Shown piece by piece: positions 6,023 through 56,306 of a DNA stretch of 64,000 nucleotides (position 1 is the first letter of the stretch; each line of letters starts with the position of its first letter). Position numbers and translations under genes: made by a program. The stretch is from Candidatus Staskawiczbacteria bacterium (GTDB lineage Bacteria; Patescibacteriota; Minisyncoccia; Minisyncoccales; Staskawiczbacteraceae), in NCBI GenBank assembly GCA_016196125.1, contig JACPYG010000015.1:22966-86965 (forward strand), written 5' to 3'. The notes beneath the pieces are model-generated. The model was not told the DNA's origin. It did no database searches and worked only from the letters and a program-made list of their open reading frames with translations.

Positions 6023-6226
6023 ATTATTTTTTATTAGACCTGTTTCTTAATAATACATTACTATCTAATTTTATATCTTTTTACAATTTTTTTCAAATTA
6101 ATATCAATAAAAAAAACCTCTTCTGTTATGAAACAGATGAGGTTGATTTTTGTTGTACTTCTTTGCTTTGTTTATTTATTCTTATCCATTTATCGCCTTT
6201 CTTCACCAAAGAACAAAACCGTAATT

Positions 6227-6268
6227 TGGTGGGCCCAGAAGGAATCGGACCTTCTGCCTCTGTCTTAT
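6227..6268 (-). repeat. Orphan copy of the tRNA-Ile 3' half (anticodon position 35 to CCA), 41/42 identical to 6316-6357
   Basis: Direct comparison: TGGTGGGCCCAGAAGGAATCGGACCTTCTGCCTCTGTCTTAT versus ...CTTCTACCTC... in the full gene. Confidence 0.9.
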
Positions 6269-6315: not shown

Positions 6316-6390
6316 TGGTGGGCCCAGAAGGAATCGGACCTTCTACCTCTGTCTTATCAGGACAGCGTTCTACCAATGAACTATGGGCCC
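6316..6390 (-). tRNA. tRNA-Ile (anticodon GAU), CCA encoded
   Basis: Manual cloverleaf: GGGCCCA TA GTTC ATTGGTA GAAC G CTGTC CTGATAA GACAG AGGTA GAAGG TCCGATT CCTTC TGGGCCC A CCA. Leader and trailer form a further 12-bp perfect helix (6308-6319 / 6391-6402). Confidence 0.9.
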
Positions 6391-6405: not shown

Positions 6406-6438
6406 CAGGACAGCGTTCTACCAATGAACTATGGGCCC
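6406..6438 (-). repeat. Orphan copy of the tRNA-Ile 5' half (positions 1-34), 33/33 identical to 6358-6390
   Basis: CAGGACAGCGTTCTACCAATGAACTATGGGCCC occurs twice. Identity stops exactly at the first anticodon base. Confidence 0.9.
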
Positions 6439-24256: not shown

Positions 24257-25252
24257 TTACATCTCCATTAATAATATTTCTAAAGCCAGCTTTGGATTGG
24301 CATTAGTCAAAGAAATTTGCGCATTAATAATTTCCAATAATTTTAAAACTTCTTTAATTTTTGATATGGAATAATTCTTAAAATTATCTGCAGCTTCCGG
24401 AAAAAAATCTTTGGGAGTTAAATTATCCGCTCCTGTTTTTAAAAATAATAAATGCCTCAAATATCTTTGCAAAATTTCTAAAACTCTCTTTGTATTATTG
24501 CCATCCAAATTAATTTTTTTTGTGTATTGAAACTTCAGGGCAAGATTAGAATTAATAACTTTTACCAGTTCTTGCAGTGTTGTTTGCTCTTCTTTCAATT
24601 TATCCGGATTTAAAAATAATTCTATTGCTTGGCCTGGTTTACAGGAACAAAAAGATGCAAGATCATGCGCTATTTTTTCTTGCCTGCCGGCAGGCAGACT
24701 TTCTCCCATTTTTACCAAATTATATTCAATTTCTTTCGGGTCTACAAGATAAAATTTTATTCTTTGACACCTTGAAATTATCGTAGACAATAATGTTTCT
24801 GGATGCGGAGATATTAAAATTAAAATAGTTTTTCCTTTTGGCTCCTCAAGTGTTTTTAAAAGGCAACTCTGCGCCTCAAAATTCATTTTTTCAGCTCCAT
24901 TGACAATGACTGCCTTAAAAGAACCGTAATAAGATTTATAGCTTAAAAAAAGCAAAGCCTCTCTTATTTGTGAAATATCAATTTCCTGTTTATCATTTTT
25001 CAGGTTTACCATTAAAACATCAACATAGCTTTCATTTTCTATGTCTTTGCAATTTCTGCAAATTCCGCATGATTCTTGACCGGGGCTTTTGCCTGCCTCG
25101 GCAGACAAACAATTGATTAACTTTACAAATTCTTTTGCCAAAGTTCTCTTACCTATTTTCTCCTCTCCAGAAAACAAATAAGCATGAGCCAACTGGCCTG
25201 ATTCAAGCTTATTCTTTAAAAAATCCCATTGTTTTTTGTGACCGATTAACAT
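24257..25252 (-). CDS. holB: DNA polymerase III delta' subunit
   Basis: HAYLFSGEEKIGKRTLA, Cys cluster C..C..C and LLKTLEEP motifs. Confidence 0.85.
   Translation of the reverse strand: MLIGHKKQWDFLKNKLESGQLAHAYLFSGEEKIGKRTLAKEFVKLINCLSAEAGKSPGQESCGICRNCKDIENESYVDVLMVNLKNDKQEIDISQIREALLFLSYKSYYGSFKAVIVNGAEKMNFEAQSCLLKTLEEPKGKTILILISPHPETLLSTIISRCQRIKFYLVDPKEIEYNLVKMGESLPAGRQEKIAHDLASFCSCKPGQAIELFLNPDKLKEEQTTLQELVKVINSNLALKFQYTKKINLDGNNTKRVLEILQRYLRHLLFLKTGADNLTPKDFFPEAADNFKNYSISKIKEVLKLLEIINAQISLTNANPKLALEILLMEM
24681..24696. repeat. GC palindrome TGCCTGCCGGCAGGCA in frame in holB (SLPAGRQEK)
   Basis: Perfect 16-bp palindrome inside AT-rich coding sequence. Confidence 0.9.
25090..25107. repeat. 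Degenerate copy TGCCTGCCTCGGCAGACA in holB (LSAEAGKS)
   Basis: Same half-sites with a 2-nt centre insertion and one arm change. Confidence 0.5.
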
Positions 25253-32604: not shown

Positions 32605-32695
32605 AACTTCATGAAACATACAACATGGAACATGGAACAAAACTACGACGAAACGTTTTTTTGTTATGTGTTCTATGTTATGTGTTATGTGATTT
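32605..32695. repeat. Heptad-periodic hairpin element (CATGRAA arm / GTTATGT arm), copy 1, filling the rpmJ-rpsM spacer
   Basis: The arm at 32610-32643 is 30/34 identical and the arm at 32661-32695 is 33/35 identical to the copy at 49647-49727. Confidence 0.85.
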
Positions 32696-34712: not shown

Positions 34713-36386
34713 CTATTTTAATATTGCTTTAATTCTTCTGATGCCTGAACCTAAAGATTCTTCTTTTATAATTTTAAATGGTCCCCGCCCAGATTCTGGG
34801 CGAGGCTCGCCCACTTTTGAGTGGGCGGCTAACTCATCAGTGCTGTTAACATGGGAGCCTCCGCAGAATTCTTTGCTAAAAACATTCCCCTTTTTATCTT
34901 GTATAAAATATACCGATACCGTATTACCGTATTTTACACCAAATTCCATTTCTGCGCCAATTTTTTGGGCTTCTTCTTTTGGCATTTCTCTTTTTACCAC
35001 CAAAAACCCTTCTTTGATTTTTTCATTTACAATATCTTCAACTTTCTTTTTTTCTTCATCGGTAAGTTTCCTGTCAAAAGAAAAATCAATCCTCAAACGC
35101 TCTGAAGTTATATTGCTACCCCTTTGTTTTATTGTTTTTCCAAAAACTTCCTGCAAAGCGGCTAAAAGCAAATGATGAGCAGTATGCAATTTTATAGTTT
35201 CTGGCTTATCATCGGCCAATCCTCCCTTAAACATACCGGCCGAAGCAGTTTTGGACAATTCTTGATGTTTCTTTAATTCTTTATTAAATTCTTTTTCGTT
35301 AATATTTGGAAAAAATTCCTTAATAATATCATAGGGCAGGCCATAACTTTGGTATAACAGAAAAGTTGATTTTATGTCTGCATTTTTCACTTTCCCAGAT
35401 TCTGCAATACCTCTTTCTAATGTCTCCAGAAACTTCTTTTTTTCGCTATCAAACTCTGTATCTATAATACTCCATCGTAATTTATAATCATCTCCAATTT
35501 TTCTTATTAATTTTTCAAAAAAACTTACTTTACTAATAAATTCATAAGCCACTATTCGTCTAATTAATCTTCTTAATATATAACCTTGTTCCTTGTTTGA
35601 TGGCTTTACCCCATCAGAAATTAAAAATGAAATAGCTCTTGCATGGTCGGCAATGATTCTTTTCTTTCTCTCATCAAATTCTTCGGGAATTAATTTAATG
35701 ATCGGCTCAAACAAATCAGTTTCAAAAACAGTCTCTTTTTTTTGAACTACCATTGCCAATCTTTCCAAACCCATTCCGGTATCAACTCCAGGAGTTTCCA
35801 GTTTAGTTAATTTTTTATTTTTATCGCAAAAAAATTCATTAAAAACTATGTTCCATATTTCAATGCCGGAAACATAAATTTCGGTTGTAGGCCCGCAAGG
35901 CCCTTCTTCGCCTGTCGGTCCCCAAAAGTTATCAATTCCTTCTCTTTTTATTTTAATTTTAAGGTCTATCTCTTTCCAAATTTTTTCTGATTTCTCATCA
36001 GGAGGAACATTTTTGTCTCCCTTAAAAACAGTTACATAATCAATTTTCAATCCCAGTTCTTTTACAATAAATTCATGCGCCAATTTTATGGCTTCTTCCT
36101 TGAAATATCCGCCGAAAGAAAAGTTTCCCAACATTTCAAAAAAGGTCAAATGCCTCTCGTCTCCCACTTCATCAATATCCGATGTTCTTATGCATTTTTG
36201 GCAAGAAACGACATTTTTACCATAGGGAGATTCCTCGCCCAAATAATATGGCTTAAACTGCTGCATTCCGGCAGTAGTGAATAAAACAGATGAATCCGAT
36301 GGCAATAAAGACGAAGAAGGCACTATTTTGTGCCCATTTTTTTTAAAAAATTGTAAAAATTTTTGTCGTAATTCGTCTGATTGCAT
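34713..36386 (-). CDS. alaS: Alanyl-tRNA synthetase, minimal 557-aa form (catalytic plus editing core, no C-Ala domain)
   Basis: N-terminal FLQFFKKNGHKIVPSSSLLP, editing HTAHHLL and CGGSHV motifs. The protein ends shortly after GIRRIKA. Confidence 0.9.
   Translation of the reverse strand: MQSDELRQKFLQFFKKNGHKIVPSSSLLPSDSSVLFTTAGMQQFKPYYLGEESPYGKNVVSCQKCIRTSDIDEVGDERHLTFFEMLGNFSFGGYFKEEAIKLAHEFIVKELGLKIDYVTVFKGDKNVPPDEKSEKIWKEIDLKIKIKREGIDNFWGPTGEEGPCGPTTEIYVSGIEIWNIVFNEFFCDKNKKLTKLETPGVDTGMGLERLAMVVQKKETVFETDLFEPIIKLIPEEFDERKKRIIADHARAISFLISDGVKPSNKEQGYILRRLIRRIVAYEFISKVSFFEKLIRKIGDDYKLRWSIIDTEFDSEKKKFLETLERGIAESGKVKNADIKSTFLLYQSYGLPYDIIKEFFPNINEKEFNKELKKHQELSKTASAGMFKGGLADDKPETIKLHTAHHLLLAALQEVFGKTIKQRGSNITSERLRIDFSFDRKLTDEEKKKVEDIVNEKIKEGFLVVKREMPKEEAQKIGAEMEFGVKYGNTVSVYFIQDKKGNVFSKEFCGGSHVNSTDELAAHSKVGEPRPESGRGPFKIIKEESLGSGIRRIKAILK
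34781..34830. repeat. GC double-hairpin element in frame in alaS (AAHSKVGEPRPESGRG)
   Basis: GTCCCCGCCCAGATTCTGGGCGAGGCTCGCCCACTTTTGAGTGGGCGGCT; shares about 32 nt with 41671-41723 in rplR. Confidence 0.85.
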
Positions 36387-36928: not shown

Positions 36929-37687
36929 TTATGCAACAGATTTAACAATTTTTAGAAATTTTTCTGCGTAAAGCGAAGCCCCGCCGACTAAAAGCCCGTT
37001 AGCCCCGGTATTTTTAATATAGAGAGCCGAGTTGTCTGAATCTACGCTGCCGCCATAAAGAACTTTCATATTATCGGCTATTTTTCTATTATACAATTTT
37101 AAAACAACTCTTCGTATAAATAAAATAGAACTCATCGTTTCGTCTTGTGAACAATTATTTCCGGACCCAATTGCCCAAATTGGCTCATAAGCAATAACAA
37201 TATTTTTTACTTCTTTTACGATAATGCCTTTTAAATCTTCTGTAATTTGCCTTTCTAAAACTTCAACTTTTTTGCCTGTCTTTTTTTCCTCATTAGTTTC
37301 ACCTATGCACAAAATCGGTTTTAATTTTTCGTGCAAGCATTCTTTTATTTTTTTATTGATAACGGTGTCTGTTTCGTTTAAATATTTTCTGGACTCTGAA
37401 TGGCCTATTATAACATATTTTACTTTTGAATCACGAAGCTGTGAAGCTGAAACCTCTCCGGTAAACGCGCCTTTTCCCCTTACCTGCCTGCCGGCAGGCA
37501 GGTAAAAAACATTCTGGGCGCCCAAAGTCAATCCTTCCAATAAGTTCAAATAAACAAAAGGCGGGCATATAACAACTTCAACCTTCTTTTCATTTTTTAA
37601 CCCTTTTTTTATTGCTTCAAAAAGAGCTTTGGCTTCTTTTTGATTGGCAGGATTCATTTTCCAGTTGGCAACAATAAGATTTTTCAT
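36929..37687 (-). CDS. tpiA: Triosephosphate isomerase
   Basis: ANWKMN, GAFTGEVS, IIGHSESR, AYEPIWAIGSG, GGASL. Confidence 0.95.
   Translation of the reverse strand: MKNLIVANWKMNPANQKEAKALFEAIKKGLKNEKKVEVVICPPFVYLNLLEGLTLGAQNVFYLPAGRQVRGKGAFTGEVSASQLRDSKVKYVIIGHSESRKYLNETDTVINKKIKECLHEKLKPILCIGETNEEKKTGKKVEVLERQITEDLKGIIVKEVKNIVIAYEPIWAIGSGNNCSQDETMSSILFIRRVVLKLYNRKIADNMKVLYGGSVDSDNSALYIKNTGANGLLVGGASLYAEKFLKIVKSVA
37482..37503. repeat. Perfect 22-bp palindrome ACCTGCCTGCCGGCAGGCAGGT in frame in tpiA (YLPAGRQV)
   Basis: Read directly from the sequence; the two halves are exact reverse complements. Confidence 0.95.
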
Positions 37688-41499: not shown

Positions 41500-41910
41500 T
41501 TAAAATTTTAATCCTCCTTCTCTGGCTCCATCGGCCAATGCTTTTACTCTGCCATGAAAAACAATTCCCCCTCTGTCAAAAACAATTTTTTCTATATTTT
41601 GAGCTTCCGCCTTTTTAGCAATTAACCTACCCACCATAAATGCAGATAATACTTTGCTGGTCATTTTTTCATCCCGCCCAAATTCATTTGGGCGAGGCTC
41701 GCCCGCCTTTTTAGGCGAGGCGGCTTTTCCAATTTTTATTTCTTTATCAAAAGCAGAAACCAAAACTTTGGCAGTATCATCATTAATTAACTGAGCATAA
41801 ATATGAGATAAAGACCTAAAAACGCAGAGACGTGGCCTGTCTTTTGTGCCATGGCATTTTATTCTTATTTTTTTATGGCGCCTTATGCGTTTTAACTTTT
41901 TTGGTAACAT
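41500..41910 (-). CDS. rplR: 50S ribosomal protein L18 (136 aa, carries an internal GC-element insertion)
   Basis: [18 protein letters not shown] ... [27 protein letters not shown]. Confidence 0.95.
41671..41723. repeat. GC double-hairpin element in frame in rplR ([18 protein letters not shown])
   Basis: ATCCCGCCCAAATTCATTTGGGCGAGGCTCGCCCGCCTTTTTAGGCGAGGCGGCT. Confidence 0.85.
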
Positions 41911-42469: not shown

Positions 42470-42494
42470 AAAATTGTATTTATTTTTGGTTATA

Positions 42495-42610
42495 GCGGAA
42501 ATAAGGATATTTTTCAATTCGGGCTCGGGTCGCGAGAGCTTCCCGCTGTGCGGGAGCTCCCGACATAGGCCGTGGGTTTGGCGGGCGTTGAAAAATATCC
42601 TTATTTCCGC
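42495..42610. repeat. MITE-like hairpin element, 116-bp form with a nested 43-nt palindrome (rpsH-rplF spacer)
   Basis: 23-bp perfect arms GCGGAAATAAGGATATTTTTCAA / TTGAAAAATATCCTTATTTCCGC. Core TTCGGGCT[43 nt]GCCGTGGGTTTGGCGGGCG. Confidence 0.9.
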
Positions 42611-42619
42611 TTAATACTA

Positions 42620-43851: not shown

Positions 43852-43870
43852 ATTTTATAATCTCTTTTTT

Positions 43871-43944
43871 GCGGAAATAAGGATATTTTTCAATTCGGGC
43901 TGGCCGTGGGTTTGGCGGGCGTTGAAAAATATCCTTATTTCCGC
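43871..43944. repeat. MITE-like hairpin element, minimal 74-bp form (rplX-rplE spacer)
   Basis: Same 23-bp arms as 42495-42610; core TTCGGGCTGGCCGTGGGTTTGGCGGGCG without any nested palindrome. Confidence 0.9.
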
Positions 43945-43954
43945 ATAGATAACT

Positions 43955-47146: not shown

Positions 47147-47970
47147 AACTTATTTGTCCACTTTTTTGTATTTCTTGTTTTTACCCCCAAGGCTGGTTTT
47201 CCCCATGGAGTTTTTGGATGTTTTAAACCAATTGGCTGTCTGCCCTCTCCTCCTCCATGCGGATGGTCAACTGGATTCATAGCCGAACCCCTAACATGAG
47301 GCCTTCTCCCTTTTAATCTTGATTTACCTGCCTTACCAACCCTATAATATCTGTTTTCTGGATTTGAAACCATTCCTATGGAAGCAAAGCACTCGCTTAT
47401 AAATTTTCTTACTTCGGTTGACGGCATTTTCAGGTTAACGTAATTTCCCTCCTGAGCTAAAACCTGAGCCGAAGATCCTGCAGATCTTACTAACTTTCCT
47501 CCTTTGCCAGGCTCTAATTCAATATTATAAACCATTGTTCCAACCGTTATATTTTTTAACTTTACTCTATTTCCTGGTTTTAAAGGAGCTTTCTCGGAAA
47601 ATATAATCTCATCTCCAACTTTCAGGTCTTGTGGCGCAATAATATATTGCCTATATTTGCTATGCCTGCCGGCAGGCATGCCTAAATATTCTATCAGAGC
47701 GATAAAGGCCGTTCTGTTTGGATCATATTCCAAAGCAACAACTCGGGCTGGCGAATCTATTCTTGTTTGTGAAAATTCAATCATTCTATAAAGTTTTTTT
47801 ACTCCGCCTCCTTTGTGTCTTACCGTAATCCTGCCAGAAGACTTCGATCTGCCAACATGTCTTTTTATATTTGCCAAAAGACTCTTTTCTGATTTATCTT
47901 TTGAAAGCAATGAAAAATCGATTCCTGTCATTCCTCTTCTGCCTGACGTTGTTGGTTTATAATGTTTCAT
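47122..47970 (-). CDS. rplB: 50S ribosomal protein L2
   Basis: EYDPNRTAFIAL ... GSAMNPVDHPHGGGEGR. Confidence 0.95.
   Translation of the reverse strand: MKHYKPTTSGRRGMTGIDFSLLSKDKSEKSLLANIKRHVGRSKSSGRITVRHKGGGVKKLYRMIEFSQTRIDSPARVVALEYDPNRTAFIALIEYLGMPAGRHSKYRQYIIAPQDLKVGDEIIFSEKAPLKPGNRVKLKNITVGTMVYNIELEPGKGGKLVRSAGSSAQVLAQEGNYVNLKMPSTEVRKFISECFASIGMVSNPENRYYRVGKAGKSRLKGRRPHVRGSAMNPVDHPHGGGEGRQPIGLKHPKTPWGKPALGVKTRNTKKWTNKFIIQRRKK
47662..47679. repeat. Perfect 18-bp palindrome ATGCCTGCCGGCAGGCAT in frame in rplB (GMPAGRHS)
   Basis: Read directly from the sequence. Confidence 0.95.
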
Positions 47971-49058: not shown

Positions 49059-49649
49059 TTATCCTCTAATCTCAAGCAAAGTTCCCCTATGTCCCGGTAT
49101 TGCTCCTTTTACTGCCAACAAGTTATTTTCTTTATCAATTTTGGCTATTTTTAAATTTTTTACAGACACTCTTTCATAGCCCATTCGACCTGGCATTCTT
49201 CTTCCTTTAATAACTCTCTGCGGAAAACGGCTTCCCGTAGATCCTATTGTTCTTTGTTCGTGTTTTACTCCATGAGTGGCATTTCTTCCGGAAAAACCGT
49301 GCCTTTTTACTCCACCCTGAAATCCTTTTCCTTTTGAAATTCCCGAAACTTTTATCTTGTCGCCCTCATTAAATATTGAAACATTTATTTCATCACCGGT
49401 ATTATATTTTGAAATATCTATGTCTCCTTTAAATTCTTTAACAAACTTATATTCTTTCCCTTTCATAGATTTTTTAATTTTATTTTTTTTCTCTAACCTT
49501 TTCATGCCAACCTGAATAGATTCATATCCATCTCTTTTTTTCTGTAAAACATAACAAGGGCCTCCCAAAATTAAAGTAACCGGTATTACCTTGCCATCAT
49601 TATCAAATATTTGCGTCATTCCTATTTTTTGTCCTAAAATAAACTTCAT
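49059..49649 (-). CDS. rplC: 50S ribosomal protein L3
   Basis: MKFILGQKIGMTQIFD. The start codon lies inside the first heptad of the repeat; the ORF-track MFYVSCF is repeat read-through. Confidence 0.95.
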   Translation of the reverse strand: MKFILGQKIGMTQIFDNDGKVIPVTLILGGPCYVLQKKRDGYESIQVGMKRLEKKNKIKKSMKGKEYKFVKEFKGDIDISKYNTGDEINVSIFNEGDKIKVSGISKGKGFQGGVKRHGFSGRNATHGVKHEQRTIGSTGSRFPQRVIKGRRMPGRMGYERVSVKNLKIAKIDKENNLLAVKGAIPGHRGTLLEIRG

Positions 49650-49727
49650 GAAACATGAAACATAAAACATGGAACAAAACGAAGATATATTATTGTTATG
49701 TGTTCTATGTTGTGTGTTATGTGATTA
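49647..49727. repeat. Heptad-periodic hairpin element (CATGRAA / GTTATGT), copy 2, in the rpsJ-rplC spacer
   Basis: CATGAAACATGAAACATAAAACATGGAACAAAAC ... TTGTTATGTGTTCTATGTTGTGTGTTATGTGATTA. Confidence 0.85.
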
Positions 49728-50208: not shown

Positions 50209-50230
50209 CTGCCTGCCTGCCGGCAGGCAT
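50209..50230. repeat. GC palindrome CTGCCTGCCTGCCGGCAGGCAT in the tuf-rpsJ leader (or the rpsJ N-extension)
   Basis: The core TGCCTGCCGGCAGGCA at 50214-50229 is a perfect palindrome. Confidence 0.9.
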
Positions 50231-55391: not shown

Positions 55392-55517
55392 TATTTAATA
55401 CTAACACGTATTGACCCCGTTAGAAATAGCCAATCTTAAAAATACTTAAATAACGTTATTATGGACGTGATTTTTAACGGAGTTGAAAAAAATAAAAGAA
55501 AGTGTTAGAATGCACCA

Positions 55518-55615
55518 AAGTGGAAATAATAATATTTTTCAACGTCCGCCCTGCCTGCCGGCAGGCAGGCAAACCCACGGCCAGCCCGAATTGAAAAATA
55601 TTATTATTTCCACTT
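55518..55615. repeat. MITE-like hairpin element with the nested 20-bp palindrome (upstream of rpmB)
   Basis: 25-bp perfect arms AAGTGGAAATAATAATATTTTTCAA / TTGAAAAATATTATTATTTCCACTT. Core CGTCCGCC CCTGCCTGCCGGCAGGCAGG CAAACCCACGGCCAGCCCGAA. Confidence 0.9.
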
Positions 55616-56206: not shown

Positions 56207-56306
56207 GGTCAGAAAATAAAAATATTTTTCAACGCCCGCCCTGCCTGCCGGCAGGCAGGCAAACCCACGACCAGCCCGAATTGAAAAATATTTTTATTTT
56301 CTGACC
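56207..56306. repeat. MITE-like hairpin element with the nested 20-bp palindrome (yraN-comM spacer)
   Basis: 26-bp perfect arms GGTCAGAAAATAAAAATATTTTTCAA / TTGAAAAATATTTTTATTTTCTGACC. Core identical to 55543-55590 except for 2 nt. Confidence 0.9.

Follow-up and report, generated by a model that had tools for sequence, protein, structure and literature searches.

Short palindromic repeats that persist inside protein-coding genes have been described from Rickettsia and from mitochondria. The Rickettsia palindromic elements (RPE), RPE-1 to RPE-10, lie in frame in housekeeping genes and are translated (Ogata et al. 2000, as summarised in PMC10969869), and the GC42/M-class GC clusters of yeast mitochondria are GC-rich hairpins of ~40 nt with conserved stems and variable loops, whose units merge and whose flanks recombine (PMC4478555). 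Here we analyse a stretch of 64,000 nt (the window) of contig JACPYG010000015.1 from a Candidatus Staskawiczbacteria bacterium (GCA_016196125.1, positions 22,966 to 86,965), in which a GC-rich double hairpin of 45 or 51 nt is inserted in frame in the genes for alanyl-tRNA synthetase (alaS; AlaRS) and ribosomal protein L18 (rplR). We consider it likely that both inserts belong to a selfish DNA element that is short, non-autonomous and defined by its structure, and that is dispersed in genomes of the candidate phyla radiation (CPR; Patescibacteria).

By description, the CPR element has much in common with the RPE: both are palindromic families of small, AT-rich genomes, occur in frame in unrelated housekeeping genes, add a peptide that is compatible with the host fold and have no known transposase of their own. 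RPE are described as measuring ~100-150 bp, being restricted to Rickettsia and not being notably GC-rich, whereas the CPR element is a GC-rich double hairpin of 36-51 nt; in addition, its core is conserved over a superphylum and it is also found in partial tRNA copies. Judged by the RPE descriptions, length and host would place the element outside the RPE families. Double-hairpin elements have reportedly also been described from the mitochondria of Allomyces and chytrids by Paquin, Laforest and Lang in 2000. These and the mitochondrial GC clusters resemble the CPR element in being GC-rich hairpins of ~30-80 nt in a very AT-rich genome, with conserved stems and variable loops, in their presence or absence between close relatives, their merging and nesting, their unknown mobilising activity, their tiny target duplication (AG in yeast, at most G in the CPR element) and their occurrence in intergenic DNA, RNA genes and occasionally coding sequence. 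Compared by description, the mitochondrial elements differ in being organellar and lineage-restricted, while the CPR element occurs in free-living or episymbiotic bacteria of many phyla. We would file the element as a new family within a known kind, i.e. a short palindromic selfish repeat able to live in frame in genes; its unusual features are the very small size, the superphylum-wide core, the insertion into tRNA arms and the recurrence at identical codons. A literature search of incomplete coverage for in-frame palindromic or hairpin repeats in CPR, Patescibacteria or Parcubacteria returned no description.

Two in-frame double hairpins in alaS and rplR

The window has a GC content of ~34% and its genes lie mainly on the minus strand, as do both host genes. 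Copy 1 resides in alaS (34713..36386), which encodes a short-form AlaRS of 557 aa (Pfam tRNA-synt_2c, 6e-99, plus tRNA_SAD), and copy 2 in rplR (41500..41910), which encodes an L18 of 136 aa (Pfam Ribosomal_L18p, 1.9e-33). The AlaRS is 100% identical to a protein (P0121) of a Ca. Staskawiczbacteria metagenome-assembled genome (MAG) at NCBI, one contig of the MAG with the identical AlaRS being GCA_016178195.1 JACOTX010000012.1; the L18 homologues come from Staskawiczbacteria/Patescibacteria as well. The synthetase stops directly past its editing domain, without a C-Ala domain, which is typical of all recovered homologues (513-605 aa).

On the coding (minus) strand copy 1 spans 45 nt (34785..34829), GCCGCCCACTCAAAAGTGGGCGAGCCTCGCCCAGAATCTGGGCGG, and is translated into AAHSKVGEPRPESGR; copy 2 spans 51 nt (41674..41724), GCCGCCTCGCCTAAAAAGGCGGGCGAGCCTCGCCCAAATGAATTTGGGCGG, and is translated into 17 aa. 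The original prediction had found both sites, with bounds (34781-34830 and 41671-41723) that are shifted slightly here. In the sense direction, copy 1 consists of a 5' hairpin with an 8-bp stem (34808..34827, CGCCCACT-CAAA-AGTGGGCG), an invariant palindromic centre that holds the sense-strand AGCCT linker (34797..34813, TGGGCGAG-G-CTCGCCCA) and a 3' hairpin with a 7-bp stem (34786..34802, CGCCCAG-AAT-CTGGGCG). In copy 2 the 5' hairpin region (41696..41724, GCCGCCTCGCC-TAAAAA-GGCGGGCGAGGC), the invariant centre, located by the shared-core search (41689..41704, TGGGCGAGGCTCGCCC), and the 3' hairpin (41675..41694, CGCCCAAAT-GA-ATTTGGGCG) follow the same order, the hairpins of both copies being assigned by folding. 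The layout common to the two copies is GCCGCC-hairpin-GGCGAGCCTCGCCCA-hairpin-TGGGCGG.

A 15-mer core shared by the copies, GGGCGAGGCTCGCCC, has just two sites in the 64 kb, one in each gene; allowing up to 3 mismatches, 0.30 matches are expected, and the observed count was reached by 0/100 shuffles. Local alignment of alaS with rplR returned the element segment alone, with a score of 23 versus 12.7 ± 1.3 (maximum 17.5) for a null of codon-shuffled L18, so that the shared nucleotides are well above chance level. Either copy folds into two tandem hairpins (ΔG of the DNA ~-20 kcal/mol, z -5.4 to -6.5), a stability matched by 0/200 shuffles, and one frame is used in both genes, giving ELAAHSKVGEPRPESGRGPF in AlaRS and a 21-aa stretch in L18. 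Shared core, folding and translations thus agree with the original view of a GC-rich double hairpin read in the same frame in two genes. A relaxed search of the window for degenerate or single-hairpin copies found none besides these two, and at the alaS site Rfam at a permissive threshold gave matches at chance level only, with no family fitting the element.

The inserts are absent from both orthologues on L004, a contig of a close relative that is syntenic from rplR to alaS. In its AlaRS (79% identity) the sequence is TSEL-GKFKIV, compared with TDEL[AAHSKVGEPRPESGR]GPFKII in the window, and in the DNA the junction is GAA TTA/GGA AAA in L004 versus GAG TTA [45 nt] GGA CCA in the window. Its L18 (85% identity) reads KISK-EKK-DEKMT versus KIGK[17 aa]DEKMT; because 17 aa replace 3, the window L18 exceeds the closest orthologue without an insert by 14 aa, and the earlier estimate of 17-20 aa over the E. 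coli protein is only approximate. A third pair of empty and filled sites, nested in another repeat of locus L201, reads CTCGGCA/GAACC versus CTCGGCA[element]GAACC. With both L004 sites empty, a clean alaS junction (TTA/GGA) and a dispersed family (see below), the comparisons show that the segments were gained at the level of DNA in two unrelated essential genes, as had been proposed. Gene conversion between alaS and rplR, proposed as the other option, is unneeded because both copies belong to a far larger family.

Among the AlaRS homologues 113 of 120 are empty between EL and G.F. The peptide as an ancestral feature of AlaRS or L18 is ruled out by the orthologue alignments; relatives simply lack it, and it is not kept there in AT-rich codons. 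The position of the AlaRS insert between the CGG.HV motif and FKI holds as predicted, but not the 2-3 residues assumed for other AlaRS: in relatives 8 residues (xNTSELGK) separate CGGPHV from FKI, and the 15-aa insert lies exactly between L and G, six residues past the zinc motif CGGxH in the editing domain (tRNA_SAD). Solved AlaRS/AlaX structures are homologous up to a point just ahead of the insert. In an AlphaFold2 model of the window L18 (mean predicted local distance difference test score, pLDDT, 80) the insert residues 61-81 have a pLDDT <50 and appear as an unstructured loop linking strand 48-54 with helix 85-103, so the L18 insert is predicted to be a disordered loop; the length of this loop varies widely among orthologues. 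Both inserts occupy surface loops.

A dispersed family across the CPR

We scanned one genome per bacterial and archaeal species with the pattern GGCGAGCCTCGCCCA-N3-10-TGGGCGG and obtained 100 loci, which, bar a few GC-rich chance matches, belong to Patescibacteria of many classes (Staskawicz-, Nealson-, Jorgensen-, Giovannoni-, Harrison-, Yanofsky-, Azam-, Portnoy-, Uhr-, Doudna- and Sungii-bacteria and Saccharibacteria). Outside the Patescibacteria, two or three loci each were found in an Elusimicrobia and a Melainabacteria MAG. A scan of metagenome contigs in which the 5-nt linker of the pattern was left free gave at least 120 loci; among the matches listed, 110 of 122 carry AGCCT nevertheless, the others being GC-rich chance matches or single-mismatch variants. 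Combined, the public scans yield ~180 non-redundant copies among the matches listed, nearly all from CPR. The search beyond the two genes that the original prediction called for thus led to hundreds of unrelated Patescibacteria loci, coding as well as intergenic.

The consensus of the family is G-CCGCCC-x-loop-x'-GGGCG-AGCCT-CGCCC-y-loop-y'-GGGCGG-G-A-R, i.e. two tandem hairpins with CGCCC/GGGCG feet, joined by AGCCT, with a total length of 36-51 nt and inverted termini CCGCCC(A)/(T)GGGCGG of 6-7 nt. The inner stems vary greatly (76 distinct left and 70 distinct right stems among 82 copies), and they contain 2.09 nested pairs on the left (0.34 in shuffles) and 1.43 on the right (0.31 in shuffles), which is near the maximum possible. 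The alignment of copies shows that the predicted structure is kept while the stem sequence varies, with feet and linker invariant; the family is thus defined by structure plus sequence.

The element pattern had 0 matches in 2.9 M viral contigs, so there is no evidence of a phage vector. Rfam scans of 34 loci at gathering thresholds detected nothing but neighbouring tRNAs and one 16S gene.

Copies inside genes keep the frame

Apart from alaS and rplR, host genes confirmed by Pfam encode another AlaRS (at a different site and antisense), PolX, phosphoglucomutase, CinA, TGT, alanine racemase and GH38, and further acetyl-CoA synthetase, class II aminoacyl-tRNA synthetases including SerRS, PGK, GDH, GyrA and RecG. 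Intragenic copies are found in both orientations. For a defined set of 33 copies, separated from the upstream stop by ≥40 codons and from the downstream one by ≥25 in an open reading frame (ORF) of ≥150 aa, the length is a multiple of 3 in 31 cases (p = 4e-13), whereas none of the three length classes is favoured among clearly intergenic copies. Such a frame filter would be unneeded if the segment were cut out of the RNA; it indicates, as far as gene sequences can tell, that the inserts reach the protein and that selection does the filtering.

Of the 33 copies, 22 have the same orientation and phase as those of the window (GCC GCC ... GGG CGG GAR, translated as AA...GR-E/D; p = 2e-10). Antisense copies (10/33) occur in three phases, while in sense copies the termini keep a constant phase whatever the phase of the core. 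Depending on orientation and frame the peptides contain GEPRP, GRASP, GASLAQ, GEARP, GRGSP or WARLA. Selection on the peptide may have caused the phase bias; a preference for insertion 5' of GA(R) may equally have done so, GAA, GAG and GAT being codons for Glu or Asp.

Target site, tRNA contexts and search for a mobiliser

In the comparisons for alaS, rplR and L201 exactly GCCGCC...GGGCGG is added ahead of a G, with at most 1 nt (G) duplicated. The flanks of 82 copies show a clear target preference: G at -1 in 75, G at +1 in 81 and A at +2 in 67 of them. Viewed in antisense the preferred 5' flank is (G/T)(C/G)TTC, with T at -3 in 115 and GGTTC in 29 of the 180 copies listed. Insertion thus takes place immediately 5' of G, usually of GA(R), or, on the other strand, 3' of YTC, a specificity of only 2-3 nt.

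This flank occurs in contexts that resemble tRNA arms, namely GGTTC/element/RAWTCC, similar to a T-loop, in 13 copies, and TAGCTC/element/AGTGG, similar to a D-loop, in 6. Loci of the T-loop type include L220, L042, L225, L155, L095, L124 and L029, those of the D-loop type L014, L017, L151, L165 and L190; interruptions of tRNA arms make up ~10% of the copies, and several other intergenic copies lie ≤50 nt from tRNA genes. An interrupted intact tRNA was considered and rejected: when the element was excised in silico from 203 copies, ARAGORN restored none, and a tRNA abutting the element was found at L089 only (tRNA-Trp). The T- and D-loop contexts thus belong to partial copies of tRNAs, which often lie directly downstream of an intact one.

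Locus L044 has two inverted copies 2.7 kb apart around ordinary ORFs. An ISNCY-like insertion sequence (IS) at L149, with a helix-turn-helix and a DDE-like ORF, was examined as autonomous partner and discarded, its terminal repeats being unrelated to the element; it is the only IS seen beside a copy, in genomes that were not searched exhaustively. No TnpA and no REP-associated tyrosine transposase (RAYT; REP, repetitive extragenic palindrome) was noticed in L044 or L149, in windows of up to 8-14 kb that do not amount to a dedicated census. At L149 (3757-6312), L201 and L114 we observed mosaic arrays of palindromic units (AAGAACCTCGC...GCTCGGCA, GAACCTTGATCC...) with identical double-hairpin copies nested in them, similar to bacterial interspersed mosaic elements (BIME); L149 holds three identical copies of the element in 7.4 kb.

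REP superfamilies carry a GTAG/CGTC tag at the 5' foot of the palindrome (PMC3733652). The CPR element shares with REP/BIME (mobilised by RAYT, Y1 HUH) and with IS200/IS605-type elements the small GC-rich hairpins, presumably recognised as a structure, the asymmetric foot nucleotides, the near lack of a target duplication and the mosaic arrays (L149, L201), and perhaps the insertion beside a short specific sequence. In contrast to REP it has no GTAG/CGTC tag, its feet being G-CCGCCC and GGGCGG-GA; also, REP are extragenic with tens to hundreds of copies per genome, while the CPR element is often intragenic and sparse. Compared with the IS200/IS605 type, including palindrome-associated (PATE-like) elements, it prefers a YTC flank, and no replication-strand bias was seen (24:17, a weak test). 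Miniature transposable elements with inverted repeats (MITEs), e.g. Correia, ERIC and the small dispersed repeats that Elhai et al. reportedly described from cyanobacteria in 2008, are non-autonomous, have terminal inverted repeats and can form in-frame fusions. The CPR element is MITE-like in all three respects; it is far shorter, shows no target-site duplication of 2-10 bp in three comparisons and has no parent IS with matching ends among those seen.

Recurrent occupation of identical codons and alternative explanations

The EL/G junction of AlaRS is filled in three lineages, i.e. in the window (P0121), in P0127 (L111) and in P0237 (L110). In each case the closest relative (82%, 81% and 78.5% identity) has an empty junction, and in a neighbour-joining tree the clade that holds all three comprises 62 leaves. 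The three filled genes (L110:3001-4743, L111:300-2042 and window 34776-34784) have identical junctions followed by GGA CCA/CCC (Gly-Pro), whereas 0 of ~110 empty genes have Pro at this place; they have Gly-Lys, Gly-Asn, Gly-Arg etc. instead. The shared change from K to P next to the insert could reflect compensation by convergence, co-conversion over a short tract or a requirement of the target.

This pattern is the basis of an alternative that we regard as unlikely, namely that the element spreads like a homing element, with empty alleles of a conserved gene being filled mainly by homologous recombination or gene conversion with filled ones, e.g. after DNA uptake, and not by random transposition. 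The identical junction TTA/GCCGCC ... GGGCGG/GGACC in three lineages with empty nearest relatives would fit such a process, as would the common change from AAA to CCA/CCC, which looks as if left by a short co-conversion tract. Likewise, one groundwater sample from Hainich holds both L18 and AlaRS with inserts at the two sites of the window, and exchange of GC42 clusters by recombination at conserved flanks is documented for yeast mitochondria (PMC4478555). However, the three AlaRS copies have strongly different variable stems and loops, and co-conversion is visible over at most ~6 nt; moreover, the many unrelated genes, intergenic repeats and tRNA fragments that are occupied require de novo insertion too.

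The versions found in the Hainich relative are decayed or remodelled at both window sites (its L18 reads TASRGDEPIPSKFGR); the L18 of L001 contains the element in decayed form. In the AlaRS of the Hainich relative (L111:300-2042) a further GC-rich hairpin, TCGCCTCGCTCGACGCGAGTCGGAGCGGG, is nested in the core and extends the insert to 24 aa, which recalls the 'merger and shuffling' of yeast mitochondrial GC clusters. In related genomes (L107:6001-6429, L108:783-1196, L109:1006-1407) the L18 loop is the site of further GC-rich palindromic inserts that are unrelated to the element, e.g. CACCCAGTTAAA-(CCGCCAAAGGCGG)x2-TTTAACGGGG plus a second palindrome in L108 and GTTCGCGGAGGAC/GTCCTCCGCGGGAC in L109. 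As these unrelated palindromes share one L18 loop in Staskawiczbacteria-like genomes, the loop is a hot spot for several element families.

A benefit to the host, with the element acting as a DNA or RNA binding or processing site, as a translational pause site or as a useful surface peptide, appears improbable. It would account for feet and linker that are invariant across distant phyla at few copies per genome, for hairpins kept even within coding sequence and for the favoured orientation and phase in genes, yet the same essential genes do without the element in close relatives, and the copies occur in both orientations and several frames with unrelated peptides, at unrelated positions of unrelated genes. 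They also decay and gain nested insertions (L001, L111), and the phase bias can be explained by the insertion preference 5' of GA(R). Chance or convergent similarity of two GC-rich loop segments, or gene conversion limited to alaS and rplR, would profit from the location of both segments in variable loops and from the wide length variation of the L18 loop, but with a shared core far above the shuffle expectation and the same sequence at ~180 other listed loci in other organisms it hardly deserves consideration. An assembly or sequencing artefact (chimeric join, adaptor-like palindrome) comes to mind for a metagenome-assembled source and can be practically dismissed, as independent assemblies (NCBI, ENA, JGI, Logan) contain the element, 14 contigs carry the P0237 allele, a second contig (L112) carries the window AlaRS allele, and the copies inside genes keep the frame.

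Several observations weigh against a selfish mobile element. With 2 copies in the 64-kb window and ~3 extra copies in ~800 kb of flanks of other loci, the copy density is low for a typical selfish repeat, and the conservation of feet and linker over very distant lineages could reflect a host function instead. Three non-sister AlaRS lineages with the same junction and the same K-to-P change are not predicted by simple random transposition. No transposase was linked to the element at the loci viewed, and the orientation of intergenic copies relative to the sign of the local GC skew is unbiased (24:17, p = 0.35, a weak test on short contigs), therefore a replication-coupled single-strand mechanism gains no support.

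Proposed mode of spread and significance

The selfish element that we favour is added to DNA 5' of a G and lands in intergenic DNA, partial tRNA copies and protein genes alike. Inside genes the survivors are those that keep the frame and sit in tolerant surface loops, where they would be translated as a short peptide rich in Gly, Pro and charged residues, probably disordered and most commonly AA-x-GEPRP-x-GR-E/D, as in AlaRS and L18 here. Because the element has no coding capacity, a trans-acting enzyme presumably recognises the hairpin feet and the linker in folded DNA. Spread between lineages would occur by horizontal transfer or recombination among co-occurring ultra-small bacteria, and pairing of the stems may be maintained because mobility is selected for, because hairpins template a quasi-palindrome correction, or both.

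A stronger version, which we put forward as a speculation that is more probably wrong than right, is that a single ORF-less element of 45 nt with a sequence-specific core is actively and horizontally propagated throughout the CPR by a conserved structure-recognising enzyme that targets YTC in exposed DNA, including tRNA T- and D-loops, and repeatedly the same codons of essential genes (AlaRS EL/G, the L18 loop). If true, new surface loops in the minimal proteomes of CPR bacteria would have a general source in this element, which might also be of a homing type that lacks a gene for an endonuclease.

The genomes of CPR/Patescibacteria are tiny and streamlined, and many insertions in their ribosomal and other core proteins are unexplained. 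At least some of these insertions can now be traced to dispersed GC-rich hairpin elements, which offers a DNA-level mechanism for the gain of loops; since such inserts are non-homologous, caution is advised in CPR phylogenomics and protein annotation. The family may serve as a new cross-phylum marker of genetic exchange among ultra-small groundwater bacteria, and it would add a third, very large group of reduced genomes to Rickettsia and mitochondria, for which 'selfish DNA in protein-coding genes' is known. Feet and linker, being invariant, provide a handle for finding the mobilising enzyme.

Other repeats in the window

Another family of GC-rich palindromes read in frame, CCTGCCTGCCGGCAGGCAGG, which gives (L)PAGRQ(V) in translation, is present in the window at 37483-37506 (tpiA), 50210-50229 (N-terminus of rpsJ), 24684-24693, 47666-47675 and 675-698, and in intergenic DNA at 55550-55573 and 56240-56263. 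The copy in tpiA is a 7-aa insertion that is absent from two orthologues, and the peptide LPAGRQV occurs at other positions in the AlaRS of other Staskawiczbacteria (P0158, P0191). Between ribosomal protein genes there are MITE-like intergenic repeats with the terminal inverted repeats GCGGAAATAAGGATATTTTTCAA...TTGAAAAATATCCTTATTTCCGC and a GC-rich centre (42490-42613, 43866-43947, 55515-55609 and 56214-56299), in two of which a PAGRQ palindrome is nested.

The intact tRNA-Ile(GAT) (6316-6390, minus strand) is accompanied by a copy of its 5' half upstream (6406-6438) and a copy of its 3' half 47 nt downstream (6225-6268); both partial copies break within the anticodon (G/AT) and look like remnants of integration events at the tRNA. 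Finally, an AT-rich repeat of 84 nt (70% identity) with inverted heptamer-like units AACATGG/AACATA is located at gene ends (32605-32688 and 49642-49725), and similar heptamer tandem repeats flank double-hairpin copies at Melainabacteria and Elusimicrobia loci (L076, L033, L050).

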